Shown piece by piece: positions 16,164-64,000 of a DNA stretch of 64,000 nucleotides. The notes beneath the pieces are model-generated. The model saw nothing but the letters and a program-made list of their open reading frames with translations, was not told the DNA's origin and did no database searches. The stretch spans positions 292,683 through 356,682 of the forward strand of contig CAVXHI010000001.1 of assembly GCA_963761655.1 (NCBI GenBank), read 5' to 3'. The translations under genes were made by a program, and so were the position numbers. This DNA is from an uncultured Actinomycetota bacterium. Its GTDB lineage: Bacteria > Actinomycetota > Actinomycetes > Mycobacteriales > SCTD01. The number at the start of each line of letters is the position of its first letter. Position 1 is the first letter of the stretch.

Positions 16164-18762
16164 GTGGACGCCGACCGCCTCACCACCAGGAGCCAGGAGG
16201 CCGTCTCGACGGCCGTGCGCCGGGCCAGCACCGAGGGGCACCCCGAGGTCGCGCCCGTGCACCTGCTGCTCGCCCTGCTCGACCAGGACGACGGGATCGC
16301 CGCCCCGCTGCTGACCGCCGTCGGCGCCGCCCCGGCGTCGGTCCGCACCCGGGCGCTCGCCCTGCTCGAGCGGCTGCCGAAGGCCCAGGGCGCCAACGTC
16401 GCCGCCCCGGGCCTGTCCCGGTCCCTGATGGCCGTCCTGTCGGTCGCCCAGCACAAGGCCACCGAGGTCGGCGACGACTACGTGTCCACCGAGCACCTGC
16501 TGGTGGGGCTGGCCGACTCGGGCGGCGACGTCGCCGAGCTGCTCAAGGGTGAGCGCGCTCTGCCCAAGACGCTCATGGACGCCTTCTCCAAGGTCCGCGG
16601 CGCGGCCCGCCGCGTCACCACGCAGGACCCCGAGTCGACCTACAAGGCGCTCGAGAAGTACGGCGTCGACCTGACCGACCGGGCCCGGCGCGGCGAGCTC
16701 GACCCCGTGATCGGGCGGGACACCGAGATCCGCCGGGTCGTGCAGGTGCTGTCGCGCCGCACCAAGAACAACCCGGTGCTGATCGGCGAGCCCGGCGTCG
16801 GCAAGACCGCCGTCGTCGAGGGGCTCGCGCAGCGCGTCGTCGACGGCGACGTCCCGGAGAGCCTGCGCGGCAAGCGCATCGTCGTCGCTGGACATGGCCG
16901 CCCTGGTCGCCGGCGCGCAGTACCGCGGGCAGTTCGAGGAGCGGCTCAAGGCGGTCCTGCAGGAGATCACGGAGTCCGACGGCGAGGTCATCACGTTCGT
17001 CGACGAGCTGCACACCGTCGTCGGCGCGGGCAAGGCCGAGGGCAGCATGGACGCCGGCAACATGCTCAAGCCGATGCTGGCCCGAGGCCAGCTGCGGATG
17101 GTCGGCGCGACGACGCTCGACGAGTACCGCCAGCACGTCGAGAAGGACCCCGCGCTCGAGCGGCGGTTCCAGCAGGTGCTGGTCGGGGAGCCGTCCGTCG
17201 AGGACACCATCGCCATCCTGCGCGGCCTCAAGGGCCGCTACGAGAGCCACCACAAGGTCGACATCAGCGACAGCGCCCTCGTCGCCGCGGCCTCCCTGTC
17301 CGACCGCTACATCACCTCGCGCTTCCTGCCCGACAAGGCGATCGACCTCGTCGACGAGGCGGCGTCGCGGCTGCGCATGGAGATCGACAGCCGGCCGGTC
17401 GAGATCGACGAGCTGCAGCGTGCCGTCGACCGCGCCCGGATGGAGATGCTCGCGCTCGAGCGCGAGACCGACGCCGCCTCGCAGGAGCGCCTCGCGACCC
17501 TGCGGCGCGACACCGCCGACCGCGAGGAGCAGCTGCAGGCGCTGCTCGCCCGGTGGGAGCGCGAGAAGGGCGGCCTGAACCGGGTCGGCGAGCTCAAGCA
17601 GCAGCTCGACGAGCTGCAGACCCAGATGGAGCGCGCCCAGCGCGAGGGCGACCTCGAGACGGCGTCCCGGCTGCGCTACGCCGACGTCCCTGCCGTCGAG
17701 AAGGAGCTGGCCGGGCTGGCCGGCTCGACCGGGGCCCGGATGGTCGAGGAGCAGGTCGGGGCCGACGACGTCGCCGAGGTCGTCAGCGCCTGGACCGGCA
17801 TCCCGGCCGGCCGCATGCTCGAGGGCGAGACGAGCAAGCTGCTGCGCATGGAGGCCTCCCTCGGGGAGCGACTCGTCGGGCAGCGGACCGCCGTCGAGGC
17901 CGTGTCCGACGCCGTCCGCCGCGCCCGCGCCGGGATCTCCGACCCCGACCGCCCCACCGGCTCGTTCCTGTTCCTCGGGCCGACCGGTGTCGGCAAGACC
18001 GAGCTGGCCAAGGCGCTGGCCGCGTTCCTGTTCGACGACGAGCGCGCCATGACCCGCATCGACATGAGCGAGTACGGCGAGAAGCACTCGGTGGCCCGCC
18101 TGGTCGGGGCGCCTCCCGGCTACGTCGGCTACGAGAGCGGCGGCCAGCTGACCGAGGCCGTCCGGCGCCGGCCCTACAACGTCGTGCTGCTCGACGAGGT
18201 CGAGAAGGCCCACCCCGACGTGTTCGACGTGCTCCTGCAGGTGCTGGACGACGGCCGCCTCACCGACGGCCAGGGCCGCACGGTCGACTTCCGCAACACG
18301 ATCCTGGTGCTGACCAGCAACCTCGGCAGCCAGTACGTCAGCGACCCGCTGCTCGACCCCGAGCAGCGGCGCGACAAGGTCCTGCAGGTCGTGCAGGGGG
18401 CGTTCAAGCCCGAGTTCCTCAACCGGCTCGACGACGTCGTCGTGTTCGACGCCCTGTCCACCGAGGACCTCGCCCGGATCGTCGACCTGCAGGTCACCGC
18501 CCTCGCGGAGCGGCTGCGGGAGCGGCGCCTCACCCTCGAGGTCACCGCTGCCGCCCGCGACTGGCTCACGCTCACCGGCTACGACCCGGCGTACGGCGCG
18601 CGGCCGCTGCGGCGCCTGGTGCAGAAGGCCGTGGGCGACACGCTGGCCCGGTCCCTGCTGTCCGGGGCGGTCCGGGACGGCGACGAGGTCGTGGTGGACG
18701 TCAAGGACGACCGGAGCGGCCTGACGGTGGCGCCGGCGGTGTCGCTCGCGAAGCAGGTCTAG
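16164..18762 (+). pseudogene. clpB: ClpB disaggregase interrupted by a +1 frameshift (one extra base near 16881-16887)
   Basis: The N-terminal part ([13 protein letters not shown]...[10 protein letters not shown]) is in the frame of ORF 16128.. . The rest ([24 protein letters not shown]... to the stop at 18762) is in the frame of ORF 16894..18762. The span is 2599 nt, which is 3n+1. Confidence 0.9.
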
Positions 18763-26629: not shown

Positions 26630-26790
26630 TCCCCGGGCGCGAAGAAGACCTCTCCCGGGACGGGAGCGGGGGACCCACACGTCCCACCGGCCGGTCGCGT
26701 CCAGCGTCGGGCCTCGGGGTGAAGCGCTGCTGCCGCAGAGCGCCGGGCGACCTCCTCGTCCGAACCCGACAGCTCACCCCGCAGGCGTCA
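26630..26790 (+). ncRNA. c-di-AMP riboswitch (ydaO/yuaA class) in the rpf leader
   Basis: Conserved segments GAGCGGGGGACCCA, CGGGGUGAAGC and CCGAACCCGACAGCUCACCCCGCAGGCGU lie immediately 5' of the RBS GGGAAGGA. The boundaries are approximate. Confidence 0.8.
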
Positions 26791-26804
26791 GGGAAGGACC
26801 CGCT

Positions 26805-43743: not shown

Positions 43744-46050
43744 GTGAGCGCCGACGAGACGAACCTGGGCACGAGCAGCCTCGACACGGTCGCGAGGGCG
43801 GCCGGGTCGGCCGAGCAGGAGATGCCGTTCGCCGAGCTCGGGCTCAAGGACGACGAGTACGCGCGGATCGTCGAGGTCCTCGGCCGGCGCCCCACCGGCA
43901 CCGAGCTCGCCATGTACTCGATCATGTGGAGCGAGCACTGCTCGTACAAGAGCAGCAAGGTCCACCTCCGGCAGTTCGGCCAGATCCCCGCCGGCGACCG
44001 GATGCTCGTCGGGATGGGCGAGAACGCGGGCGTCGTCGACGTCGGGGAGGGCCTCGCCGTCACGTTCAAGGTGGAGAGCCACAACCACCCCAGCTACGTC
44101 GAGCCGTACCAGGGCGCGGCCACCGGCATCGGCGGCATCGTGCGCGACATCCTCACCATGGGCGCCCGCCCGGTCCTCGTCATGGACCCGCTCCGCTTCG
44201 GCGACGCCGACCACCCCGACACCAAGCGCGTGCTGCCCGGCATCGTCGCGGGCATCGGCGGCTACGGGAACTGCCTCGGCCTGCCCAACGTCGGCGGCGA
44301 GGTCGTGTTCGACCCCAGCTACAACGGCAACCCGCTGGTGAACGCGCTCTGCCTCGGTGTGCTCAAGAAGGACCGCATCCAGCTGTCCGCGGCCCGCGGC
44401 GTCGGGAACGTCGTCGTGCTGCTCGGCGCGAAGACCGGCCGCGACGGCATCGGCGGCGTCAGCGTCCTCGCCAGCGCCTCCTTCGACGACGACGGCCCCG
44501 CCCGGCGGCCGAGCGTGCAGGTCGGCGACCCGTTCACCGAGAAGCTGCTCATCGAGGCGTGCCTGGAGATGTTCGACGCCGACCTCGTGGCCGGCATCCA
44601 GGACCTCGGCGGCGCCGGCCTCACCTGCGCGCTGACCGAGACCGCCGCGGCCGGACGCTCCGGCATGCGTGCGCACCTGGACCGCGTGCCGCTCCGCGAG
44701 GCGTCGATGGAGCCGCACGAGGTGCTGGCCAGCGAGTCGCAGGAGCGCATGCTCGCGATCGTCGAGCCGGGGAAGCTGCAGGCCGTGCTCGACCTCGCGG
44801 CCAAGTGGGGCGTGCTGGCCACCGCGATCGGCGAGGTCGTCGAGGGCGACCGGCTCGAGGTGCTCTGGCACGGCGAGACCGTCGTCGACGTGCCGCCCGC
44901 GTCGCTCGCCGACGAGGGCCCGGTCTACGAGCGGCCGATGAGCCGGCCCGCCGACCTCGACGCGCTCCGGGACCTCCCGCTGCCGGCGTACCCGACGGTC
45001 GACAAGGACCTCCTGCTCGACATGGCCTCGAGCCCGAACCTCTGCAGCCGGCGCTGGGTGGTCGAGCAGTACGACCGCATCGTGCTCGGCAACAGCGTGC
45101 TGGCCTGGCCGGAGGACGCGGGCGTCGTGCGGCTGTCGGAGGAGACCGGCCTCGGGGTCGCCCTGGCCACCGACGGCAACGGCCGCTACACCCGCCTCGA
45201 CCCGTACGCCGGGGCGCAGCTGGCGCTGGCCGAGGCGTACCGGAACGTCGTCGCCACCGGCGCCGTGCCGATCGCCGTCACGAACTGCCTGAACTTCGGC
45301 AGCCCCGAGGACCCCGAGGTGATGTGGCAGTTCGCCGAGGCGACCCGCGGTCTCGCCGACGCCTGCACCGCACTCGGCATCCCGGTCACGGGCGGCAACG
45401 TCAGCTTCTACAACCAGACCGGCAGCACGGCCATCAACCCGACGCCGGTCGTCGGCGTGCTCGGACTGTTCGACGACGTCGCCCGGCGCGTGCCCATGGG
45501 CCTGGTCGAGCCCGGCGACAGCCTGCTGCTGCTCGGCGACACGAAGGACGAGCTCGGCGGCAGCGAGTGGGCCTGGGCCCTGCACCGGCACCTCGGCGGC
45601 ACGCCCCCGCAGGTCGACCTCGACCGCGAGCGGCTGCTCGGTGAGGTCCTCGTCGCGGGCAGCCGCGACGGCATGCTCAACAGCGCCCACGACCTCTCCG
45701 ACGGCGGCCTCGCGCAGGCGCTCGTCGAGATGACGCTCGCCAAGGGCTTCGGCGCGCGCGTGGTCCTGCCCGCCGGTCTCGAGCCGTTCGTGCAGCTCTA
45801 CAGCGAGTCGGCCGGGCGGGCCGTCGTCGCGGTCCCGCGCTCGGAGGAGCTCCGCTTCACCGAGATGTGCAGCGCCCGGGGCCTCCCCGTCGTCCGGATC
45901 GGCGTCGTGGACGGCACGTCGCTGGACGTGCAGGACGTCGTGACGGTCGAGCTCGACGAGCTGCGCGAGGCCTACGAGGCGACGCTCCCCGCGCTGTTCG
46001 GCCCGCTCGCCGGCGGCACTGCGGCGCAGCCGCACGGCCCGGCTCTGTAG
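43744..46050 (+). CDS. purL: FGAM synthase subunit PurL
   Basis: 768 aa: [25 protein letters not shown]. Confidence 0.97.
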
Positions 46051-46658
46051 TGCGTGGGCTGGTCGCCGCCCAGGGCGAGCTCGTCGTCCGGGCGCTGGCC
46101 CTGGCCGACCCGGCCGCCCCGACGCGGTGCGCCGGCTGGACCGTCGCGGACCTCGACCGGCACCTGGGGCACGCGCTCGCCAGCCTGACCCGGCTGCTGC
46201 CCGGCGCCCCGGGGGAGCCGGACGCCGGGCTCGCGGGCTGGGGCGACGCCCTGCCCGCGCTCGCGGGGTCGATCGACGAGGCCGCGCAGTCGTCCGGCCG
46301 GGGCCTCGCCGCGGAGCTGCCCGACCTGCTCGGGGCGCTGTCGTCGGCCGACCCGGGGCACGTCGTCCAGCAGCGGACCGGCCGGCACACCGTCGCCGAC
46401 GCCGCCCTGTTCCGGCTGGTCGAGCTGGTGGTCCACGGCCGCGACCTGCCGACGCCGGTCGAGCCCGACGGGCACGCCCTCGGGGCCGTGGTGCTCGCCG
46501 TCGTCGCGGCGCTGCCGCCCGGCCTGTCGGTGCCGCCGTACGTCGACGGCAACGGTCCGCAGCTGGACCCGCTGGACCTGCTCGACCTCGCCGCCGGCCG
46601 CGTGCCGGTGCCGCCGGGGCTGGGGACGTACGGCGACGCCCTGCCGCTGCTCGGCTGA
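46050..46658 (+). CDS. DinB/MDMPI-like (mycothiol-dependent maleylpyruvate isomerase N-terminal domain) protein
   Basis: GTG at 46050 overlaps the purL stop by 1 nt. CAGWTVADLDRHLGHA. The family assignment is from memory. Confidence 0.55.
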   Translation: MRGLVAAQGELVVRALALADPAAPTRCAGWTVADLDRHLGHALASLTRLLPGAPGEPDAGLAGWGDALPALAGSIDEAAQSSGRGLAAELPDLLGALSSADPGHVVQQRTGRHTVADAALFRLVELVVHGRDLPTPVEPDGHALGAVVLAVVAALPPGLSVPPYVDGNGPQLDPLDLLDLAAGRVPVPPGLGTYGDALPLLG

Positions 46659-46672
46659 GCCGGGCGCCGGCG

Positions 46673-47642
46673 TCAGAGCAACGGGCCCGGCCCGCCCACG
46701 CCGAAGACGACGGAGTCGGTCTCCGTCACGTCGGCCGTCGGTCGTGCAGGCACCGGAGGGCAGGTCGCAGACCGCGATCACGCCGGTGGTCCGGTCGGGC
46801 CCGAGCGGACGGGGCTCGGGCTGTCCGGCCCGGGCCAGGACGGCGTAGCTGTCGTCGTCGACCCAGCCTCCGAACCGCACGTCGGGTGCCGGGTAGCGAG
46901 GGGTGACCGAGGCCGAGGTGCGGCAGTCCTCGACGGGCAGCGTCCCCCGCTCCCCGACCGTGACGCACCAGTGCCCGTCCGGCGAGACGATGCCCGAGAC
47001 GCCGCCGCCGGTCCTCCCGCGGCCGATGAGCAGGTCGTACGGCGTGCCTGCACGCTGCTCGCTGCGTCCGGGTCGTCGCGCCGAAGGACCGCCGTCCGCG
47101 GTCGGGAGCTCCGCCCGACGCTGCAGGGCCCTCCCCTTCACCACTCTCCAGTACGCGGCGGTGTCGTCGAAGCCGAGGAACGTGGGCTCGCCGTCCTCGT
47201 ACAGGTCCGCCAGGTCGTCCGACTCGTCCCCCATCCCGTCGTCGTCGCGGAGCACCGCGGCGCCGGTCCGCAGGTCGACGACGACGGCGGCGGCGAGGCG
47301 GTCCGCCCGGCTGCGCTCCGGCCCGTCGTCGATCCAGCCGGCGAAGCGCCCGTCGGGCGAGACGTGGACCGTGCGCTGCTCGCCGGGCAGCGGCGTCGAC
47401 TGCTGCCCGTCGAAGAGGACCACGGGGCCGGCGCCGAGCTGCAGCAGGAAGCCGTAGGGAGTGGGCCAGACCCTCTGCACCTGGCCCGGCACCTCGAAGG
47501 TCTCGCTCCCGGCGTGCAGCGTCGTCCCCTGCGCCCACACGACCTCGCGCCCGAAGACGGCGGGCCGGTCGAGCAGCGGCGCCGACGGCGTCCCGCACGC
47601 GGCCAGCAGGCAGGCGCCGAGCAGGAGCGGCAGGCGCGTCAC
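46673..47642 (-). pseudogene. Lipoprotein (beta-propeller-like, unknown function) with a probable +1 frameshift near 46733-46738
   Basis: Lipobox VTRLPLLLGACLLAACG at the start (47642). After ...CDLPSGACTTD, the G/C third-position bias moves to the +1 frame (ADVTETDSVVFGVGGPGPLL*, stop at 46673). The track ORF runs on antisense into the neighbouring gene. The span is 970 nt, which is 3n+1. Confidence 0.6.
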
Positions 47643-47676
47643 CGCCCGAGCGTAGGGCCGTCCTAGCCTGCTGGTC

Positions 47677-48030
47677 GTGCCGCGCAAGCCCCGAGACTCC
47701 GCAGAGGTCGACGCCGCCGTCCGGTCCGTCCTGGCCGGTGAGCGCGCCCGGACGGCGGTCGCCCTCGCGGTCCGCGGCCTGGCCGAGCGGCTGGCCGAGC
47801 TCGCCCCCGGCCACCACGTCGAGCTCCGGGTGCCGCCGTACGCCGCGGTGCAGTGCGTCGAGGGGCCGCGGCACACGCGGGGGACGCCGCCCAACGTCGT
47901 CGAGGTCGAGCCGCTGGCGTGGGTGCAGCTCTGCATGGGGGAGCTGAGCTGGGCCGAGGCCGCGGCGGACGGCCGGGTGCGCACCTGGGGCGACCGTGCG
48001 GACCTGTCTGCCTGGCTGCCCCTGCCCTAG
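47677..48030 (+). CDS. SCP2/sterol-carrier-like small protein
   Basis: 117 aa with coding bias. The family assignment is from memory and uncertain. Confidence 0.5.
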   Translation: MPRKPRDSAEVDAAVRSVLAGERARTAVALAVRGLAERLAELAPGHHVELRVPPYAAVQCVEGPRHTRGTPPNVVEVEPLAWVQLCMGELSWAEAAADGRVRTWGDRADLSAWLPLP

Positions 48031-52664: not shown

Positions 52665-53701
52665 GCTCCTACGCCGCCGCGGGCGTCGACATCGAGGCGG
52701 GCGACCGCGCGGTCGAGCTGATGAAGAGCAAGGTCGCCCGGGCCAGCCGCCCGGAGGTCGTCGGGGGGCTCGGCGGGTTCGCCGGGCTGTTCCGCCTGGA
52801 CCTCAAGAAGTACCGCGACCCCCTGCTGGCCAGCAGCACCGACGGCGTCGGCACCAAGCTCGCCATCGCGCAGGCCATGGACCGCCACGACACCGTGGGG
52901 ATCGACCTCGTCGGCATGGTCGTCGACGACCTCGTCGTCTGCGGCGCCGAGCCCCTGTTCATGCAGGACTACGTCGCCGTCGGCCGGGTCGTGCCGGAGC
53001 GGGTCGCCGAGATCGTCGGCGGCATCGCGGCGGGCTGCGAGCTGGCCGGGTGCGCCCTCGTCGGCGGCGAGACCGCCGAGCACCCCGGCGTCATGCCCGA
53101 CGACCACTACGACATCGCGGGCACCGGCGTCGGCGTGGTCGAGGCCGACGCGCTCCTCGGCGCCGAGCGGATCGAGGCGGGCGACGTCGTCGTCGCGATG
53201 GGCAGCTCGGGCGTGCACTCCAACGGGTTCAGCCTCGTCCGCCACGTGCTGCTCAGCGGCGCCCGGATGCGCCTGGACGGCGTCGTCGACGAGCTCGGGA
53301 AGCCGCTCGGCGAGGAGCTGCTCACCCCCACCCGGATCTACGCCAAGGACTGCCTCGCCGTCATCGAGGAGACCGGCGTGCACGCCTTCGCCCACATCAC
53401 CGGTGGCGGGCTCGCCGCGAACCTCGCCCGGGTGCTGCCCGACCACCTGTCGGCCGTGCTCGAGCGCTCCTCGTGGAGTCCGGCGCCGGTCTTCGGGCTC
53501 GTGCAGGCCAAGGGCAAGGTCGAGCAGGCCGAGATGGAGCGCACCTTCAACATGGGGGTCGGCATGGTCGCCGTCGTCCCGGCCGCCGACGTCGACCGGA
53601 CGCTCGCGCTGCTGACCGCGCGGCACGTCCCCGCGTGGGTCCTCGGTGAGGTCCGCGAGGGCGACGGCCACGCCGAGCTCGTCGGGACGCACAGCGCCTG
53701 A
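52661..53701 (+). CDS. purM: AIR synthase
   Basis: The GTG overlaps the purF stop (GTGA). YAAAGVDI, STDGVGTK, SSGVHSNGFS. Confidence 0.96.
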   Translation: MSSYAAAGVDIEAGDRAVELMKSKVARASRPEVVGGLGGFAGLFRLDLKKYRDPLLASSTDGVGTKLAIAQAMDRHDTVGIDLVGMVVDDLVVCGAEPLFMQDYVAVGRVVPERVAEIVGGIAAGCELAGCALVGGETAEHPGVMPDDHYDIAGTGVGVVEADALLGAERIEAGDVVVAMGSSGVHSNGFSLVRHVLLSGARMRLDGVVDELGKPLGEELLTPTRIYAKDCLAVIEETGVHAFAHITGGGLAANLARVLPDHLSAVLERSSWSPAPVFGLVQAKGKVEQAEMERTFNMGVGMVAVVPAADVDRTLALLTARHVPAWVLGEVREGDGHAELVGTHSA

Positions 53702-53714
53702 CCCCGCGGACACG

Positions 53715-53750
53715 ACGGAGGGCCGGCCCCCGTGGGGACCGGCCCTCCGT
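53715..53750. terminator. Bidirectional stem-loop between convergent purM and the DUF3073 gene
   Basis: ACGGAGGGCCGG (53715-53726) pairs perfectly with CCGGCCCTCCGT (53739-53750). The loop can pair further (CCCC/GGGG). Confidence 0.65.
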
Positions 53751-53759
53751 CATGCCGGG

Positions 53760-53954
53760 CTAGCGCTCGTCGTCGTCCGGGAGCGCGTAGGGGTCGTCCT
53801 CGTCCTCGTCGTCCTCCGCGACCGCGGGGCTGAACGGCGAGGGCGTGATGCCCGCCAGCTCGGCCTTCAGCCGCTCGGGGTCGAGGCTGCCGCCGCTGTA
53901 CTTCAGCTCGCGAGCGACCTTCGTCTGCTTTGCCTTTGCACGGCCGCGCCCCAT
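53760..53954 (-). CDS. DUF3073-family small protein
   Basis: MGRGRAKAKQTKVARELKY followed by an acidic tail. It is the conserved actinobacterial neighbour of purM. Confidence 0.85.
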   Translation of the reverse strand: MGRGRAKAKQTKVARELKYSGGSLDPERLKAELAGITPSPFSPAVAEDDEDEDDPYALPDDDER

Positions 53955-54189
53955 GGCTCGACCCCCTCATGCGACGGGGCCGACGGCGAGGCGTCGGCCC
54001 GGAGACTGGTGACAGCGCGTGCACGTGACGGAGCCGCAGCCGCTCTGTCATGGCCGGTGCTCCTGGCCACACGGTACAGGGTCCCCGCGCTCCCCACACG
54101 GCGTCGGGCAGGCTGCACCCGGACGGGTCAGCAGGTGAGGGCGCCGACGTGTCGAAGACAGGTCGGGACGACGACAGGACGGGGGGCAC

Positions 54190-54624
54190 GTGAAGGTCGC
54201 AGGCACGGTGGTGCTGCTCGCGGTGGGAGCGGCGAGCACGCTGGGCGCGGTCGTCCCGGCCGGAGCGGCGCAGGCGGCCCCGCGGGTCACGAAGGGCGCG
54301 TGGACGACCACGGCGACGGTGCCCGACCCGACCACGGGAGGCGCCCCCTCCGACACGTGCGAGGGCCTGGCCTCGGCCCGGTACCGGCGCGCGCTGGCCC
54401 TTCCCGGGCCCGGCGTCCTGCGCCTCACCCTCACCAGCACCGGCGACTGGGGGCTCGCGGTCCGGGACGCCCGCGGCCGCGCGCTCGGACGCGCCGACAG
54501 CCAGGTCTCCCAGCCCGAGCGGCTCGCCCTGCGCGTCCGCGCCGCCAGCAGGGTGCTGGTCGACGCGTGCAACTTCGCCGGCGCCCCGACCGCCCGGGTG
54601 TCCTGGACGTTCACCCGGACCTGA
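54190..54624 (+). CDS. Secreted hypothetical protein
   Basis: Signal peptide MKVAGTVVLLAVGAASTLGAVVPAGAAQA, then a beta-rich body with two Cys residues. Confidence 0.6.
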   Translation: MKVAGTVVLLAVGAASTLGAVVPAGAAQAAPRVTKGAWTTTATVPDPTTGGAPSDTCEGLASARYRRALALPGPGVLRLTLTSTGDWGLAVRDARGRALGRADSQVSQPERLALRVRAASRVLVDACNFAGAPTARVSWTFTRT

Positions 54625-54740
54625 GCGGCCGGACGACCGCGGGCACCCGCACCTGAGCGGCCGGACGTCCGCGGGCACCCGCACCTGAGCGGCCAGCCCG
54701 ACCGCGGGCACCCGGACCTGACCGTCCGGGCACCCGCGCC
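54612..54740. repeat. Tandem ~32-nt repeat, about 3.5 copies (CACCCGSACCTGAGCGGCCGGACGWCCGCGGG)
   Basis: Copies at 54612-54643, 54644-54675 and 54676-54708, with a degenerate remainder to about 54740. Copy 1 contains the stop codon of the preceding gene. Confidence 0.9.
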
Positions 54741-54761
54741 GCGCTGCGAGCCCGTGCCCCG

Positions 54762-55841
54762 CTACAGCCCTCGCGCCGCCGCCATGCGGCGCTCGCCGAG
54801 CCGGTCGGCCGCGACCGCCGGCGGCACGCCCTCGGACTCCGCCAGCGCGAACACCTCGAGCGTCGTGTCGAAGATCCTCGACGCCCCCTGCTTCGCCCGG
54901 TCGAAGGAGAACCCGCCCTCGCCGATCGCCTCGTCGCCGACCTGCACGACGCCGCCCGCGTTGGCGACGTAGTCCGGGGCGTAGAGGACCCCGGCGTCGG
55001 CGAGCAGCTTCTCCACCCCGGGGTGGGCGAGCTGGTTGTTGGCCGCTCCGCACACCACCCGGGCCTGCAGCCGCGGGACGACCTCGTCGGTGAGCGAGCC
55101 GCCCAGCGCGCAGGGCGCGTAGACGTCGAGGGCGAGCCCCGGCAGCTCCTGCACCGTCGAGGCCTCGGCGCCGAGCGCGGTCGCCCGGGCCACGGCGGCG
55201 TCCGCGACGTCGCTCACGACCACGGACGCGCCGTCCTGCAGGAGGTGCTCGACGAGGTGCAGGCCGACCTTGCCGACCCCCTCGACGCCCACCCGCCTGC
55301 CGGCCAGGGTCGGCTCGCCCCAGACCTGCTGCGCCGCCGCCCGCATCGCCTGGAACACGCCGTACGCCGTGAGGACGGCGCTGTCGCCGGCGCCGCCGCG
55401 CTCGGGCGAGCGCCCGGTCACGAAGCGGCTGGTCTCGGAGACGACGTCCATGTCGGGGACGAAGGTGCCGACGTCGCACGCCGTGTAGTAGCGGCCGCCG
55501 AGGGCCTCGACCATGCGCCCGTAGGCGCGCAGGAGGTCGTCGGTCTTGTCGCGGGCGGGGTCGCCGAGGATCACGGCCTTGCCGCCACCGAGGGCGAGGC
55601 CGGCGCAGGCCGCCTTGTAGGCCATCGCGCGGGACAGCGCCAGGACGTCGGTGAGGGCGGCGTCCTCGGAGGCGTACGGGTAGAACCGCGTGCCGCCGAG
55701 GGCCGGCCCGAGGGCGGTGCTGTAGACGGCGATGATCGCCTTGAGGCCCGAGGCGCGGTCCTGGCAGAAGACCACCTGCTCGTGGCCGGCGTCCTGCAGG
55801 TGGTCGGTGCGGTCGAAGACGCCCACGGCGTGCTCCTTCAT
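54762..55841 (-). CDS. Glu/Leu/Phe/Val dehydrogenase-family enzyme (valine/leucine dehydrogenase type)
   Basis: [23 protein letters not shown] and the Rossmann segment GVEGVGKVG. Confidence 0.9.
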
Positions 55842-57190: not shown

Positions 57191-57712
57191 GTGGGCGTGT
57201 TCTGCGTGGACCGCGCGGGGGTGCAGGTCTTCGGCACGTCCCACCGCCTGTGGGGGCTGCTCGGGGACGTGCTGGCCGCGCTGCAGGCCGAGCAGGTGGC
57301 CGCGGCCTGGACCTTCGACGGGTACGTCCCGTCCTGGCTGGCGCGGTCCTGGGGCGACCTGCTGTTCCGCGACCTCGGTGAGGTCGTGCTCGTGTGCCGG
57401 CCCCTCCCCGGGCACAGCAGCGAGCTCCAGCCGGTCGGGACCTACCGCCGCGGGAGCCCGGCGGCTGCTGCCCTGACCCGGGCGGGCGAGCACCTCAGCG
57501 TCTACGACACGCCGGTCGCCACCGCACTGCTCGCCTTCGCCCAGACCTGCACGGCCACGGCCGGCTTCAGCGTCACCACCCTGCGGCCGCCCGCGCCCGG
57601 CAGCCCCCGCAGCGAGGTCGCCGTCCGCCGTCTGCTGGCGCGGAGCGGCATGCTGGGGGTGACCGGGCGCGGTTCGGGCAGGCTGGTCGGAGCTCCCCGC
57701 CGACGACGATGA
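57191..57712 (+). CDS. Hypothetical protein
   Basis: 173 aa with G/C third-position bias. I recognised no family. Confidence 0.5.
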   Translation: MGVFCVDRAGVQVFGTSHRLWGLLGDVLAALQAEQVAAAWTFDGYVPSWLARSWGDLLFRDLGEVVLVCRPLPGHSSELQPVGTYRRGSPAAAALTRAGEHLSVYDTPVATALLAFAQTCTATAGFSVTTLRPPAPGSPRSEVAVRRLLARSGMLGVTGRGSGRLVGAPRRRR

Positions 57713-57722
57713 AGGACGACGC

Positions 57723-58808
57723 ATGCTGATCCGCAACTTCGGGTGGGCCGCGGCCCTGACGGTGGCCGCGGTCGTCGTCGCCGCCGTCACGGGCGGGATC
57801 GGCACCGCGCTGATCGTGCTGCTGCTCGGCGTCCTCGAGATCTCGCTGTCGTTCGACAACGCGGTGGTCAACGCCAAGGTGCTCGAGCGCATGCACCCGG
57901 TCTGGCAGCGGCTGTTCCTGACCGTCGGCATCCTCATCGCCGTCTTCGGGATGCGCCTGGTGCTGCCGATCCTCATCGTCTCGATCACCGCGGGCCTCGG
58001 GTTCGGCGAGGTCATCGACCTGGCGCTCAACGACTCCCAGCGGTACGGCGAGGAGCTGGCCGCCTCCGAGGCGCTCATCTACGCCTTCGGCGGGACCTTC
58101 CTGCTCATGATCTTCCTGGACTTCGTGCTCGACCCCGAGCGCGAGATCCTGTGGCTGACGCCGGTCGAGAAGGCGCTGCAGAAGATCGGCAAGCTCGACC
58201 AGCTCTCGGTGCTGCTCGCCCTCGGCGGGATCTACCTCATGTCGCGGCTCGCGCCCGAGGACGAGGTCACGAAGGTCCTGCTCGCCGGCATCGCCGGCCT
58301 GGTCACCTACCTCGCGGTCAACGGCCTGGACGCCCTGTTCGAGGAGTCCATGGAGAACCGCGAGGGCGAGGACACCGGCCCGGCCGGCGGCAAGATGACG
58401 ATGGCCGTCTTCAAGGCGGGCGTCTTCTCCTTCCTCTACCTCGAGGTCCTCGACGCGTCGTTCTCCTTCGACGGCGTCATCGGCGCGTTCGCCATCTCCG
58501 ACGAGGTCCTCGTCATCGCCCTCGGCCTCGGCATCGGCGCCTTCTGGATCCGCTCGCTGACCATCTACCTGGTCCGGGCCGGGACGCTGTCGGAGTACGT
58601 GTACCTCGAGCACGGCGCCCACTGGGCGATCGGCGTGCTCGCCGGCATCATGCTGTTCTCGGTGAAGTACCACATCAGCGAGGTCGTCACGGGCCTCACC
58701 GGCGTCGCGTTCATCCTGCTGTCGCTGTACAGCTCGGTGCGCGAGCGTCGGGAGCGCGACGTCGACGTGCAGGACAGCGAGAAGGTCCTCGGCACGACGC
58801 AGCGGTAG
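57723..58808 (+). CDS. DUF475-family integral membrane protein (TerC-related)
   Basis: LEISLSFDNAVVNA and a second LEVLDASFSFDGVIGAF half. Multi-TM. GAAGGA RBS. Confidence 0.8.
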   Translation: MLIRNFGWAAALTVAAVVVAAVTGGIGTALIVLLLGVLEISLSFDNAVVNAKVLERMHPVWQRLFLTVGILIAVFGMRLVLPILIVSITAGLGFGEVIDLALNDSQRYGEELAASEALIYAFGGTFLLMIFLDFVLDPEREILWLTPVEKALQKIGKLDQLSVLLALGGIYLMSRLAPEDEVTKVLLAGIAGLVTYLAVNGLDALFEESMENREGEDTGPAGGKMTMAVFKAGVFSFLYLEVLDASFSFDGVIGAFAISDEVLVIALGLGIGAFWIRSLTIYLVRAGTLSEYVYLEHGAHWAIGVLAGIMLFSVKYHISEVVTGLTGVAFILLSLYSSVRERRERDVDVQDSEKVLGTTQR

Positions 58809-58811
58809 GGG

Positions 58812-59516
58812 TCAGCTCCCGGCCCGGCCCAGGGAGGCGAGCAGCGCGCCGAAGCCGTCCGCAGCCCGGGGCTGGCGCCGGGAGGACGTGACGACGGGGT
58901 GCGCCGCGACCCGGGCGACCCGCAGGCCGTGGAGCTCCAGGGCGGCGACGAGGGCGTGGTCCTCCGCGAGGGCCAGCGGCGGGAACCCGCCGACCCGGGC
59001 GTAGGCGGCGGCGGACAGGCTCAGGTTCGCCCCGTGCACGTGCGGGTGGTCCGGCCCGGTCCAGGCGTAGCGCTCGGCGAAGCGCCGGACGACGGCGTCG
59101 TCGTGCCCGGACCAGTCGGCGACGGCGACCGTCCCCGCGACGGCGTCCCACCCGTCGGCCCGCCAGCGCAGCTGGTCCGCCAGCCAGGAGGCCGGGACGC
59201 GGCTGTCGGCGTCGGTGGTGGCGAGCCAGAGCTGGTCCAGGGGCACGCCGGACTCCTCGACGACGCGACCGAGGCCGAGCCGGCGGGCCGCCCCCGCGTT
59301 GCGCAGGTCGACCTCCAGGACCTCGGCGCCGGCGGCGCGGGCGACGTCCGCGGTGGCGTCCCCGCAGCGGTCGGCCACCACCACGAGCCGCACGGGAGGC
59401 ACCCCCGGGTGCTGGGCGGCCAGGTGCAGCGAAGCCAGGCACGCCGGCAGCAGCTCCTGCTCGTCGTGCGCGGGGACGACGACGGCGACGGCCAGCGGGA
59501 GGGGGACGCTCAGCAC
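58812..59516 (-). CDS. Family-2 glycosyltransferase
   Basis: AVVVPAHDEQELL and TDADS (DxD). GTG at 59516. It is the 3' part of ORF 58812..60272. Confidence 0.8.
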   Translation of the reverse strand: MLSVPLPLAVAVVVPAHDEQELLPACLASLHLAAQHPGVPPVRLVVVADRCGDATADVARAAGAEVLEVDLRNAGAARRLGLGRVVEESGVPLDQLWLATTDADSRVPASWLADQLRWRADGWDAVAGTVAVADWSGHDDAVVRRFAERYAWTGPDHPHVHGANLSLSAAAYARVGGFPPLALAEDHALVAALELHGLRVARVAAHPVVTSSRRQPRAADGFGALLASLGRAGS

Positions 59517-60133
59517 AGGCCCTCCCGGGCGGCCACCGACACGTGCCCGCCCTCGCCCGGCCGGGGCCGGACGTGGACGGACAGGGCGAGGTCGGCCTCG
59601 ACGTGGTGCACCGTCCGGACCAGCTCTCCGGCGGCCGCCTCCGCCACGGCGTCCTGGACGGCGTCGCCGGTCTGCGGGTAGTCCGCGACCGGGTGCCGCC
59701 AGTGGACGGACAGCAGCGTGCCGCCGGGCTCGACCGCCGCGACGGCCGCGGCCGCGACGGCGACCAGGTCGGCGTCGCCGAGGTAGTAGAGGAGCTCGGA
59801 CAGCACGACGAGGTCGAACGTCCCCGCCGGCCAGCCCGCGGGGAGGGCGGCCTGCGCGAGCCGGACGTGCGGCGCTCCGGCCAGCCGGGCCGCGGCCCGG
59901 GACAGCGCCTCCGACGAGACGTCGGTGGCGAGCAGGGTGTCGCAGCGGCCGGCCAGGTCCAGGGTCAGGACGCCGAGGGAGCAGCCCGGCTCGAAGCCGC
60001 TGCGGTAGCGGCGCTGCGGCAGGGCGGCGAGCGTGAGGGCCCGCTTGCGCTCCTCGTACCAGCGGTCGACGAACCCCCAGGGGTCGTCCGCGCCGGCGTA
60101 GACCCCGGTGAAGTACTCCTCGGGCAGCGTCAT
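59510..60133 (-). CDS. SAM-dependent methyltransferase (NodS-like)
   Basis: MTLPEEYFTGVYAGADDPWGF...EPGCSLGVLT...LSELLYYL. It is the 3' part of ORF 59510..62242. Confidence 0.8.
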   Translation of the reverse strand: MTLPEEYFTGVYAGADDPWGFVDRWYEERKRALTLAALPQRRYRSGFEPGCSLGVLTLDLAGRCDTLLATDVSSEALSRAAARLAGAPHVRLAQAALPAGWPAGTFDLVVLSELLYYLGDADLVAVAAAAVAAVEPGGTLLSVHWRHPVADYPQTGDAVQDAVAEAAAGELVRTVHHVEADLALSVHVRPRPGEGGHVSVAAREGLC

Positions 60134-60862
60134 GCCAGCAGCACCTCCTCGGGACGCTGGAAGTGCGCCAGGACCGCGGGAGGGACGACGGCGGCGTCCT
60201 CGGGCGCCGGGCCGAGGGGCGCCGTCTGGCTCGGGTAGCAGGCGAGGGCGGCCTGCTTCCGCGCGAGGGCACCCGCGGGCAGCGGCAGGCGCACGGCGCG
60301 GTCCCACGGGACGCGCGGGTCGCCGGGCGAGGCCCAGTGCCAGGCCCAGAGCGGGTAGGACACCAGCCGCGCCCCCGTGAGGGCGCAGGCCGACGCGGCG
60401 GCCCGCCCCGCGGCGTCGTGGTCGGGATGGCCGTCGGCCTCGAACGGGGCGACGCACCAGTCGTGCGGCCCCAGCAGCGGTGCCAGGGCCTCGGCGAGAG
60501 GCTGCTCGCCCGCGGTCAGGCCGCCGTCCGGCAGGTGCAGCCGGAGGTGCTCCGGTCCGCCGAGGGCCTCGAGGGCCGCGTGGGTCTCCGCGGTCCGCAG
60601 CGCGCGCAGCTGGTCGGGCGTCGCCGCCGTGCTGCCCGGGTGGGACGCCTCGCCGTCGGTGGCGGCCACCAGGACGACCTCCGCTGCCGGCGTCGAGGAG
60701 CAGGGCCATCAGGCCCCCGACCGCGAGCGTCTCGTCGTCGGGGTGGGGGGCGACGACGACGGCGCGACGGCAGGCGGTGACGTCCAGCACCGGCAGCTGC
60801 GCGAGCACGGGCCAGGCCCGCCAGAGCTGCTCGTCCGTGCCCTCGCCCGGCACGAAGGTCAC
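60130..60862 (-). pseudogene. PIG-L/LmbE-family deacetylase with a +1 frameshift near 60681-60683
   Basis: VVVAPHPDDETLAVGG...LLLDAGS is in one frame. EVVLVAATDGEASHPGS...DGHPDHDAAG continues in the +1 frame (ORF 60130..60669). The span is 733 nt, which is 3n+1. Confidence 0.8.
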
Positions 60863-61818
60863 CACCCCGGGTCCTGCAGGAGCGCGAGCTCGCCGAGCTG
60901 GGCGAGGTCGGTCTCGGCGTGGCTCTGCCGCAGGTAGACCGGGAGGTCGGCGGCCAGGGCCGCGTGCTGGGCGTCGCGGCACAGCGGCCCGGCGCCGAGG
61001 GCCCGTCCGACCCGGTCGAGCACCTCGGTGGCGGCCCGCTCGGTCTGGGCGCGCACCCGGGCGGCCCGCCGGTGCTGGTCGGCCTGCGGGTCGGCGTCGA
61101 CCGCGGCGGCGGCCTCCTGCAGGGCGACGGCGACGGCCGACAGCGCAGCGTCGACCGCGCCGAGGTGGGCCAGCGCGTGCGGGCCCCGACGGGCGGCCGA
61201 CGTCCGCAGCGCCCGCCCGAGCCCGACCGCCCCGCCGTGCCAGCAGGCGGCGACGGCCACCGCGCCGTGCCAGAAGCCGGGCCGGTCGAGGTAGCTGCCC
61301 GGGCCCCCGACGGCGACGGCCGGGGTGTCGGGGAAGACGACGTCGAGGCTGTCGCTGCCGGCCATGCCCACGGCGGGCCAGGTGCCGGGCACGGCGCGGG
61401 TGCCGGCGAGGTCGACGGCGAACAGCCGGTACCCGTCCGGCGCGTCGGCGGTGACGAGGGCGTGGGTGAGGGCGCGGGCCCCGGAGCACCAGGGCTTCGT
61501 GCCGGACAGCCGCCAGCCGTCCGGGACGGGGCGGGCGGTGAGGGCGGGCTCCGGCGGGTGCGCCGCCCAGACCCCCCAGCGGGACCCCGCGGGGGCCGGC
61601 GGACCGGCCAGCTCGGCCAGGACCGCGAGCGCGTCGAGGTGCGCCTCGGCCAGCCGGGCGACGCAGAGGTCGACGGCGGCGAGCTCCACCAGGGCCCGCC
61701 AGCGCTGCAGGGTGCCCCCGCTGCCGGGCAGCGGCAGGTCCAGCCGTCCCTCGTCGACGCAGGCCCGGAAGGCGGCGGTCACGGCGGCGACCCGGGGCGG
61801 CAGGTCCTCGGGCGGCAC
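60859..61818 (-). CDS. Acyl-CoA dehydrogenase-fold flavoprotein
   Basis: 319 aa: WRLSGTKPWCSGA, MAGSDS. The stop overlaps the PIG-L start (GTGA). Confidence 0.7.
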   Translation of the reverse strand: MPPEDLPPRVAAVTAAFRACVDEGRLDLPLPGSGGTLQRWRALVELAAVDLCVARLAEAHLDALAVLAELAGPPAPAGSRWGVWAAHPPEPALTARPVPDGWRLSGTKPWCSGARALTHALVTADAPDGYRLFAVDLAGTRAVPGTWPAVGMAGSDSLDVVFPDTPAVAVGGPGSYLDRPGFWHGAVAVAACWHGGAVGLGRALRTSAARRGPHALAHLGAVDAALSAVAVALQEAAAAVDADPQADQHRRAARVRAQTERAATEVLDRVGRALGAGPLCRDAQHAALAADLPVYLRQSHAETDLAQLGELALLQDPGW

Positions 61819-61841
61819 CCCCGGACCCTACGGGCGCCCGC

Positions 61842-62264
61842 TCAGCCGTGCCCGACGGTGGCCCCGCCGCAGGTCGCCAGCCAGCCCGCGACGTGCAGCA
61901 GCAGCGGCCCGAGCGGGTCGTCCATGACACCGGTCCGCTCGGCCAGCGGCGGCAGGCCGGCCCACGGGTCGGGGGCGGTCCGGCGTCGTCCGCGCTGCAG
62001 GCTGACCGGCGCGGCCACCAGCCCCCGGGGGCGCAGCTGGGCGCGGCGGTCGTCCCAGACCGACACCAGGACGAGGTCGGGCAGGTGGTCGAACAGGGCC
62101 TGCGACCAGGCCGCGCAGACCTGGCTCGGGACGTACGCCGCCGGAGCGAGCAGGTCGCGGTCGGGCGCCTCGCAGGCGAGGAACGCCGAGGCGAGCAGCT
62201 GCACCTGCAGGGTCGACAGCCGGAGCGCGTCGATCCGGGCACGACCCACCAGCTGGACGCTCAC
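61842..62264 (-). CDS. Hypothetical protein (operon member)
   Basis: 140 aa. GTG at 62264 overlaps the HAD stop (GTGA). Coding bias is present. Confidence 0.5.
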   Translation of the reverse strand: MSVQLVGRARIDALRLSTLQVQLLASAFLACEAPDRDLLAPAAYVPSQVCAAWSQALFDHLPDLVLVSVWDDRRAQLRPRGLVAAPVSLQRGRRRTAPDPWAGLPPLAERTGVMDDPLGPLLLHVAGWLATCGGATVGHG

Positions 62265-63047
62265 CCCGCCAGTCTGCCGCCGAGCCACCCCAGCAGCTCC
62301 TCGCCGGCCCGGGCGCCCGACGCCGTGGTGACGTGCAGCCCCGGCGGCGCCCACCCGAGGTCGTGCAGCTCGCCGTGCGCGGGCCGGACCGCTCCGCCCG
62401 AGGCCAGGCCCAGCTCGAGCAGGGGGGCGTCGAGCAGGGAGTCGCCCGCGGCCAGCACCGGGTCCGCGCCGGCGAGCCGGGCGACGGCCGCCCCCTTGGT
62501 CAGCCCGGCGGGGACGGCGTAGGCCTTGCGGCCCTGCACGGAGACCGACCAGCCGCGGGGCTCGAGGGCGGCGCCCAGCTCCTCGAGCCAGCCCGGGGGG
62601 AACGCCTCCCGCGACTGCGCGACCAGGTAGACGAACAGGTCCTCCGCGGTCCGGACCAGCCGGACCCAGTCCTGCCCCTCCCAGGTCCCGAGCAGGGCGC
62701 GGACCTCCTCGACGGGCGCCGCCCCGGCCAGCAGGCCCTGCACCCAGGTGTCCCAGGCGGGGTCGCGGGCGCCGTCGACGAGCAGGACGCCGCCGTTGGC
62801 GCAGACGGCCTGGCGGCGCGGGCACGGGCAGGGCGATCCGGGAGTACTGGGCGACCGTCCGGGTGGTCACCGGGACGACCCGGGCGCGGGCCGCCAGGGA
62901 CCGGTAGGCCTGCACCGCGCCGACGGTCATCGACGACAGCGGGGCACCGTCGAGGTGCTCGACGACGACGGAGGGGCCGGCCGCGCCGGCGGAGCGCTCG
63001 CTGAAGACGACGGTCTGGTCCAGGTCGAGGGCGACGAGCGCCGTCAC
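62261..63047 (-). pseudogene. HAD-IIB-type hydrolase with a +1 frameshift near 62808-62812
   Basis: Motif I ALDLDQT and motif II VPVTTRT are in one frame. CANGGVLLVDG..., GLTKG and AAGDSLLD (motifs III and IV) are in the +1 frame (ORF 62261..62743). The span is 787 nt, which is 3n+1. Confidence 0.8.
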
Positions 63048-64000
63048 AGGGGCCTGATCAGGCCGATGCACGAGTACGCGAGGTCCTCGACCTCCACCAC
63101 GGGCACCCCGCGGGCCGCGGCGAGCAGCCGGACGTGCTCGAGCTCGCCCGCCCGGTCCGGCCGCACCAGCACCTGCCACGGCACCCGGCGCAGCAGCACC
63201 CGGGTGGTCTCGCCGACGCCGGGCTTCACGAGGTTCACGTCCCCGATCCCGTACCGCTCCGCGACGTCGACGACGGACGCCCAGCCCGACCACGTCGGCG
63301 TCCGGTCGGAGGCGAGCAGCGGGGCGACGTCGACCGGGGCGAAGGCGGCGCTGACGGCGTCGAGGAAGACGCCGGAGACGTCGACGGGGGCGAGCTCCGG
63401 GTAGGCCTTGGCGCCGTGGAACATGCCGGGACCGATGAGGTCGTCGCGCAGGACGGTCCGGGAGACGAGGCCGGAGACGGTCGAGTTGAGGCAGGCGCTC
63501 GGGATGAGGAAGTCGTCGCGGGTGCCGTACAGGTCGGTGCAGGAGCCGGGGTCGGCCAGGACGGCGAGCCGGGGGTCGAGGCCGTCGTAGGCCCGGACCG
63601 CTGCGGCCAGCTCCCGGGCGATCGCGCCCTTGCCGGTCCAGCCGTCGACGAACCGCACCTGCTCCGCGGCGTGCCGGGACAGGACGTGCCGGACGGCGAC
63701 GTCGTCGATGCCCTTCCCGCGCACGATGCTGACGGCGTAGTGCGGGACGTCCAGGCCGTGCGCCCAGGCGAACCACCGGCGCAGCAGGATCGCGACCGGG
63801 GTGCCGGCCCGGGCGAGCGACACCAGGACGGGCGCCTGCCCGTGCTCGGCCAGCAGCAGCTCCCCGACCAGCCCGACCGCCTGGGCGAGGCGCCCCGCCG
63901 ACTCCGCCAGCGACCGGTGGAACAGCGCCGTGTAGGCCTCGTCGGGCTGGAACTCGACGGGGAGCATCTCGGCGTAGTGCCGCCCGCCCTGGATGAGCTC
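63044..64000 (-). CDS. ter-associated PRTase-like / StiP-family protein (5' end outside window)
   Basis: The frame stays open to the window edge (...ELIQGGRHYAEMLPVEF...). VLVSLARAGTPVAILL, SIVRGKGID, FVDGWTGKGAI. The family was recognised from memory, not searched. Confidence 0.5.
   Translation of the reverse strand, partial: ELIQGGRHYAEMLPVEFQPDEAYTALFHRSLAESAGRLAQAVGLVGELLLAEHGQAPVLVSLARAGTPVAILLRRWFAWAHGLDVPHYAVSIVRGKGIDDVAVRHVLSRHAAEQVRFVDGWTGKGAIARELAAAVRAYDGLDPRLAVLADPGSCTDLYGTRDDFLIPSACLNSTVSGLVSRTVLRDDLIGPGMFHGAKAYPELAPVDVSGVFLDAVSAAFAPVDVAPLLASDRTPTWSGWASVVDVAERYGIGDVNLVKPGVGETTRVLLRRVPWQVLVRPDRAGELEHVRLLAAARGVPVVEVEDLAYSCIGLIRPL

Follow-up and report, generated by a model that had tools for sequence, protein, structure and literature searches.

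At one end of the 64,000-nt stretch of contig CAVXHI010000001.1 analysed here (the window), positions 58812-64000 hold seven gene-like units on the minus strand, all co-directional and tightly packed. In order of transcription they encode a StiP protein, a HAD-superfamily phosphatase, a 140-aa protein, an acyl-CoA dehydrogenase (ACAD)-fold protein, a PIG-L de-N-acetylase, a methyltransferase and a GT2 glycosyltransferase; we refer to the last four as the cassette. A first-pass annotation had read the seven genes as one pathway. The positions and the packing that it gave stood, but it had missed two frameshifts, so that its row of seven genes was confirmed only in part: the HAD (787 nt) and PIG-L (733 nt) spans are each broken by a single-base insertion. 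The junctions were all found where it had placed them: GTGA overlaps at 63044-63047, 62261-62264 and 60859-60862, an ATGA overlap at 60130-60133 (between PIG-L and the methyltransferase), a 7-nt overlap of the methyltransferase and GT2 genes at 59510-59516, and, as the sole junction of the row without overlap, a 23-nt gap at 61819-61841. The same was true of the convergent DUF475 gene, whose stop at 58808 is separated from that of GT2 by 3 nt. All domain calls (StiP/PRTase, HAD, ACAD fold, PIG-L, methyltransferase, GT2 and DUF475) held in Pfam, PDB profile and AF2/Foldseek comparisons. The row also continues past the window edge, as had been reported. The StiP frame is open up to the edge, and a full-length protein identical to it (P0001, 100% identity, 349 aa) has 31 more codons beyond 64000, which places the start of the gene at ~64093. 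The features of the locus are the following.

63044..64000, minus strand: StiP (PF11202, earlier name PRTase) with PELOTA_1, 3' 318 codons (Pfam; full-length P0001).
62261..63047, minus strand: HAD-superfamily phosphatase, 261 aa if repaired, single-base insertion at ~62813 (reading frames; six intact relatives; PDB profile match).
61842..62264, minus strand: conserved hypothetical protein of 140 aa, restricted to a narrow Frankiales-like clade (52 homologs, alignment, paralogy, AF2).
61819..61841, no strand: 23-nt spacer, left boundary of the 3.02-kb cassette insertion (break of collinearity with the relatives L086-L088).
60859..61818, minus strand: ACAD-fold protein, 319 aa, nearest to structures of the group-D flavin monooxygenase type (Pfam below cut-off, PDB sequence matches, AF2/Foldseek).
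60130..60862, minus strand: PIG-L/LmbE-family de-N-acetylase, 243 aa if repaired, single-base insertion at ~60685 (Pfam, reading frames, alignment).
59510..60133, minus strand: class I S-adenosylmethionine-dependent methyltransferase, NodS-like (Pfam, NCBIfam, PDB).
58812..59516, minus strand: GT2 glycosyltransferase (GT-A), small and soluble, 234 aa (Pfam PF13641/PF00535).
58809..58811, no strand: 3-nt spacer between the GT2 and DUF475 stops, right insertion boundary (comparison with relatives).
57723..58808, plus strand: DUF475/TerC-related membrane protein, convergent with the ter module in all relatives (Pfam, 1.8e-111; synteny).
57191..57712, plus strand: hypothetical protein of 173 aa directly upstream of DUF475, distant paralog of the 140-aa gene (sequence comparison).

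The three closest relatives of the locus (L086-L088, Frankiales metagenome-assembled genomes with StiP proteins 89-92% identical to that of the window) encode TRSP, StiP, an intact HAD of 262-272 aa, an open reading frame (ORF) of 140-144 aa and the convergent DUF475, and have no cassette. BLASTN alignments were collinear with all three from 64000 to 61832 and again from 58809 to 55500 of the window, and these two blocks lie only ~16-90 nt apart in the relatives. The surplus of the window is 3.02 kb, which is exactly the ACAD, PIG-L, methyltransferase and GT2 genes, and the 23-nt gap coincides with its left boundary. At the level of sequence, this comparison shows a precise, lineage-specific insertion: the four-gene block has entered the spacer that separates the 140-aa gene from DUF475. 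As the contig was assembled from a metagenome and contains indel errors, one could suppose that the cassette was wrongly joined into the locus during assembly. However, the sequence is that of one syntenic locus to the left and to the right of the 3.02-kb block, whose boundaries are precise and fall in one short spacer, whereas a chimeric join would not restore collinearity; moreover, the StiP and ACAD proteins are both recorded on one contig of 444,345 bp. An assembly chimera is therefore extremely improbable.

The genes on the left side of the insertion belong to a family of loci that is easily recognised. StiP matched PF11202 (3.8e-92) and PELOTA_1 (PF15608, 4e-34), and PF11202-type PRTases, in many cases fused to PELOTA, belong to the ter-linked biosynthetic module, whose architecture was summarised in PMC11994780. 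Homologs of StiP are named "Phosphoribosyl transferase (PRTase)/PELOTA" by several sources. The HAD gene lies directly downstream of it with a 4-nt overlap, which is the place of the HAD phosphatase of the module, in a frameshifted ORF. We found no Pfam match for HAD, either as found or repaired, but a profile built from seven sequences matched the HAD-type trehalose phosphatase 6CJ0 in the PDB (2.7e-18, residues 3-216). Relatives with StiP proteins at 80-84% identity (L081/82, L084/85 and L090) encode, in this order, TerD, an ORF of ~230 aa, C-C_Bond_Lyase, PRTase_2/TRSP, StiP/PELOTA and HAD, and beyond HAD the convergent AIM24 and DUF475, followed by HTH_17 and DUF8083. PRTase_2/TRSP and the TIM-barrel C-C lyase were upstream in all relatives with enough sequence; the window holds the last two genes of the module only. 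The assignment of the PRTase and HAD genes to the ter-linked module, already made in the first pass, is borne out by these neighbourhoods, including the adjacent TerC-family DUF475. Judged by gene order, StiP and HAD form the 3' end of a ter-linked module, whose ancestral last gene was HAD. The locus differs from the described module in the HAD gene, which is frameshifted here (probably an artefact) and has no match to a Pfam HAD model. It also differs in the ATP-grasp gene, of which Pfam detected none in the ter modules of the actinobacterial relatives, from which the region beyond 64000 was reconstructed. The module is said to have been predicted, in a comparative genomics study by Anantharaman, Iyer and Aravind in 2012, to make a ribonucleoside-like metabolite. 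As for the ~230-aa ORF between TerD and the C-C lyase (L081:4442-5143, L090:1278-1955), it had no confident Pfam domain, and one copy gave a sub-threshold match to TerD (E 0.0016).

Between the two halves of the row lies the 140-aa gene, which the first-pass annotation had listed as a further member. It indeed lacks any known domain, and its AF2 model (pLDDT 87) had no significant match in the PDB; the annotation had missed that the gene is an ancestrally separate unit. Its 52 homologs (58-91% identity) are all in one narrow clade. In deeper relatives it is found between the oppositely oriented AIM24 and DUF475, and does not adjoin HAD; it would have come to lie next to HAD only after AIM24 was lost. 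The protein is a distant paralog of the product of the 158-181-aa gene directly upstream of DUF475, of which the window copy is at 57191-57712 (29% identity, E 8e-5). In many relatives (L088, L090, L098-L100, L102, L105, L106 and L108) DUF475 has one of the two paralogs on each side, which suggests that the function of the 140-aa/173-aa pair is linked with the TerC-like membrane protein rather than with the biosynthetic enzymes.

The cassette has a very different distribution. Relatives of the ACAD-like protein number at least 263 in the representative genomes of GTDB, and thousands in the protein database. We examined 80 ACAD loci with flanks of 10 kb. The ACAD, PIG-L, methyltransferase and GT2 genes were adjacent in ~75 of them, i.e., they form a cassette of conserved order (GT2-ACAD-PIG-L-methyltransferase in Rhodococcus, Nocardia and Mycobacterium). 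None of the 80 loci encoded a homolog of StiP, HAD, the 140-aa protein or DUF475, and an all-against-all clustering of the flanking ORFs gave no real gene family common to more than ~15 of the loci. The nearest homologs of the cassette (78-81%) encode an intact PIG-L of 246 aa and are neighboured by an MFS transporter and DUF2254, or by a canonical ACAD. One locus with 78% identity (L110) has overlaps of 4, 4 and 7 nt, identical to those of the window, and these overlaps are therefore inherited features of the cassette. It is present in hundreds of Actinomycetota and also in Proteobacteria: at 35-57% identity and with unchanged gene order, we found it on two plasmids, one from Kitasatospora and a conjugative one from Pandoraea, and in Acinetobacter baumannii (L094-L096). 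The Kitasatospora cassette has its own upstream intergenic region of 615 nt. In a published table, the A. baumannii genes ACICU_02432-02435 appear as one operon whose expression changed in parallel, by 31-62-fold (PMC5660220). Conversely, among ~25 loci with StiP/HAD and/or the 140-aa gene, including those from a metagenome scan, the gene after the 140-aa ORF was always DUF475, and none of these loci had the cassette; GT2, PIG-L, methyltransferase and ACAD genes are thus not regular components of ter modules. Judged by its neighbourhoods, the cassette is an autonomous unit without conserved neighbours. The plasmid-borne copies (L095, Pandoraea pPV15; L094, Kitasatospora plasmid 2) are close to CsbD, YqjD and ferritin-like genes of the general-stress type, which gives a weak hint of a role in stress or dormancy.

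We conclude, with a probability of about 0.78, that the locus was put together from three evolutionary layers and is not one dedicated pathway. The first layer would be the 3' end of a ter-linked module (C-C lyase, PRTase_2/TRSP, StiP with PELOTA, and HAD phosphatase). The second would be the clade-specific 140-aa gene, paralogous to the gene upstream of DUF475. The third would be the autonomous cassette, which in this lineage entered the 16-90-nt spacer separating the 140-aa gene from DUF475. Both modules belong to kinds already known, the ter module by prediction and the cassette as a widespread, annotated and uncharacterised operon. The adjacency of ter module and cassette is, in the genomes compared, a recent one-off juxtaposition.

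Several observations weigh against this conclusion. Scans for repeats, tRNAs and Rfam families found no insertion sequence element, target-site duplication, tRNA or att site at the borders of the insertion. A consensus scan, which is uninformative at 75-80% GC, detected no terminator or promoter between the layers. The layers are co-directional, and co-expression or some functional coupling in this organism remain compatible with the data. Finally, two of the three clear frameshifts of the 64-kb window fall within these 5.2 kb, for which the chance is ~2% if they are distributed uniformly, with detection more sensitive in 58812-64000 than in the remaining window. The comparison of GC content and of GC content at third codon positions (GC3) gave no signal of horizontal transfer for the cassette, because GC3 is saturated everywhere.

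If the seven genes formed one integrated pathway, the PRTase/HAD module would make a nucleoside-like core that GT2, PIG-L, the methyltransferase and the ACAD-fold enzyme would glycosylate, de-N-acetylate, methylate and oxidise. The genes do share a strand, every junction is either an overlap or the 23-nt gap, no terminator-like site was seen between the halves in the scan just mentioned, and both modules are associated with stress (ter itself, the co-regulation of the A. baumannii cassette with stress genes, and the CsbD/YqjD neighbours in Pandoraea). Yet the two halves shared no locus among more than 100 related ones (0/80 and 0/~25), an outcome that the first-pass annotation had itself set against its single pathway, and the closest relatives do without the cassette. 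In addition, the cassette occurs as an apparently independent operon with unrelated neighbours in genomes and plasmids, the single non-overlapping junction is exactly the insertion boundary, and the 140-aa gene that separates the halves is ancestrally a unit of its own. We consider a single pathway very unlikely. Seven enzymes acting together would have pointed to a new natural product, and this claim should not be propagated.

In the composite locus that we favour, the expression of the cassette probably depends on its surroundings. The 23 nt in front of the cassette and the 3 nt behind it leave no room for a promoter or terminator of its own; its transcription would therefore come in by read-through of the genes upstream, or start at a promoter within the 140-aa gene. 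A further step from there would be that the ter operon has captured a promoterless cassette, whose amino-sugar-type product would be made together with the nucleoside-like ter metabolite; the cassette would either tailor that metabolite or take part in a joint stress-protection response linked to DUF475/TerC. Such a capture is distinctly unlikely; if true, one would see here, as in a natural experiment, how a cryptic stress pathway recently recruited a mobile tailoring cassette. The composite locus has an interest of its own, as a clean and dated example of a 3-kb operon cassette placed precisely in the intergenic spacer behind another operon. It also draws attention to the cassette itself, which is very widespread (from Actinomycetota to A. 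baumannii), expressed and co-regulated in a pathogen, and has one component with a crystal structure.

As assembled, two of the seven "genes" lack an intact ORF, which shows that frame-checking matters. Neither the HAD nor the PIG-L span is divisible by 3, and in both genes start and stop are in different frames. Nucleotide alignments with intact relatives located one extra base in each: in PIG-L at ~60685, 'GGC[A]GCGGAGGTC', and in HAD at ~62813, 'CCG[C]CAGGCC' against 'CCG-CACGCC' in six relatives. The pieces of the split PIG-L cover positions 1-25 and 26-128 of the Pfam profile. Removal of the base gives a PIG-L of 243 aa (Pfam 1.2e-26, profile positions 1-128 of 129), and likewise a HAD of 261 aa. 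The catalytic motifs are kept across the halves (DxD...GDSxxD in HAD, and the metal motifs HPDD...HPDH in PIG-L), GC3 is 0.95-0.99 in both halves of both genes, and there are no premature stops besides the shifts.

A GC3 frame plot over the whole window was used to flag other frame breaks. It revealed a +1 insertion at ~16880 in clpB (plus strand, window 16840-16920), 'ATCGTC[G]TCGCTGGAC', after which the frame of '...GKRIVV' resumes elsewhere. A candidate at 40.7 kb was discarded as an ordinary gene junction (the start of purC), and one at 46.75 kb was ambiguous. A lipoprotein-like gene at 45972-48029 (minus strand, 'VTRLPLLLGACLLAACG...') has no in-frame stop before 45972 and extends ~700 nt into the opposite-strand gene at 46095-46680; it possibly carries a fourth indel near its 3' end.

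The metagenome assemblies L085, L089 and L109 (ENA ERZ25039498) contain many split genes (C-C lyase, DUF475, HAD, GDH and ACAD-like) that are not split in sister assemblies such as L084, a pattern typical of indel-rich long-read assemblies. Since clpB has the same defect, related assemblies are rich in split genes, and GC3 and motifs are kept, we regard the HAD and PIG-L frameshifts as most likely assembly errors. Genuine shifts would make the ter module and the acquired cassette a decaying, non-functional array of pseudogenes. Such decay would fit the density of frameshifts, with two in 5.2 kb as compared with a clear case (clpB) and an ambiguous one in the remaining 58.8 kb, and neither insertion sits in a long homopolymer. 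However, clpB is a conserved housekeeping gene and was hit by an insertion of identical type, and this, together with the split genes of the related assemblies and the otherwise undamaged reading frames, makes decay of the locus unlikely.

The enzymes of the cassette could be assigned to families. The ACAD-fold protein matched Acyl-CoA_dh_M at 1e-5 (26 bits, below the cut-off of 33.3 bits) and does not qualify as a classical acyl-CoA dehydrogenase. At 319 aa it is ~70 aa shorter than canonical ACADs. By sequence it matched the PDB entries 5z8t/5gj7 (2e-7), the best being entries of "ACAD type 2" or monooxygenases. Its AF2 model (pLDDT 92.5) had Foldseek matches at ~1e-12, with TM of 0.7-0.8, to TdsC/DszC, KijD3, DnmZ, XiaF, HsaA, MsuC and classical ACADs. 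The amino-sugar N-oxygenases KijD3 and DnmZ, which share the fold and are among the top structural neighbours, ranked 12 and 14; at E ~1e-12 they are indistinguishable from TdsC/DszC, HsaA, MsuC and true ACADs, and the window protein differs from them in being shorter, too. Hence, the model confirms the ACAD fold, and the matches do not tell the oxygenase and dehydrogenase subclasses apart.

PIG-L shares fold and metal motifs with the deacetylases of mycothiol and bacillithiol synthesis (MshB, BshB), but its scores were far below the cut-offs for BshB1 (TIGR04001, 33 bits vs 182) and BshB2 (TIGR04000, 21 bits vs 195), and its partner glycosyltransferase is of family GT2 instead of GT4. The methyltransferase matched NodS both in Pfam (PF05401, 3.9e-10) and in the PDB (3OFJ, 1.2e-13), and gave an ortholog-level match to the structural-genomics entry 4ISC (4.7e-45). 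With 60 bits against the NCBIfam NodS model NF041650 (cut-off 300), it is a homolog of NodS and not an equivalog. GT2 matched PF13641/PF00535, with weak matches of the TIGR04283/GpgS type.

The cassette resembles Nod-factor tailoring by NodC, NodB and NodS, in which a GT2 produces a GlcNAc conjugate whose amine is freed by a deacetylase and methylated by a NodS-type enzyme, and the homology of the methyltransferase with NodS is real. But the deacetylase of the cassette is a PIG-L whereas NodB is of family CE4, its GT2 is a small soluble GT-A enzyme whereas NodC is a processive membrane enzyme, there is no NodA acyltransferase, and the methyltransferase scores under the NodS equivalog cut-off. 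With scores under the cut-offs, we rejected an assignment of the cassette to a NodC/NodB/NodS type or a mycothiol type. Another close known system is the operon type of A. baumannii ACICU_02432-02435, in which all four families recur with unchanged order and with conserved overlaps of 4, 4 and 7 nt, and which includes a methyltransferase ortholog with a structure (4ISC). The window cassette differs from it in its setting, with an unrelated gene 23 nt in front of it, a convergent one 3 nt behind it and apparently no promoter region of its own, and in its frameshifted PIG-L.

From what is known of these families, GT2 may transfer an N-acetylhexosamine (HexNAc) to an acceptor that is soluble or membrane-peripheral, PIG-L would strip the N-acetyl group from the HexNAc conjugate, the NodS-like enzyme would methylate the amine freed by PIG-L, and the ACAD-fold flavoenzyme would oxidise the product of the cassette. 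Literature searches for the cassette gave no functional study and no assigned product or phenotype, only the transcriptome table (PMC5660220); a paper on DtpC and desiccation turned out to be unrelated.

Elsewhere, the window is densely coding, except for ~1.1 kb at about 53700-54800 without clear coding-frame signal in the GC3 frame plot. A cyclic di-AMP riboswitch (RF00379) was found at 26637-26801 on the plus strand, with 46.8 bits, over the gathering score.

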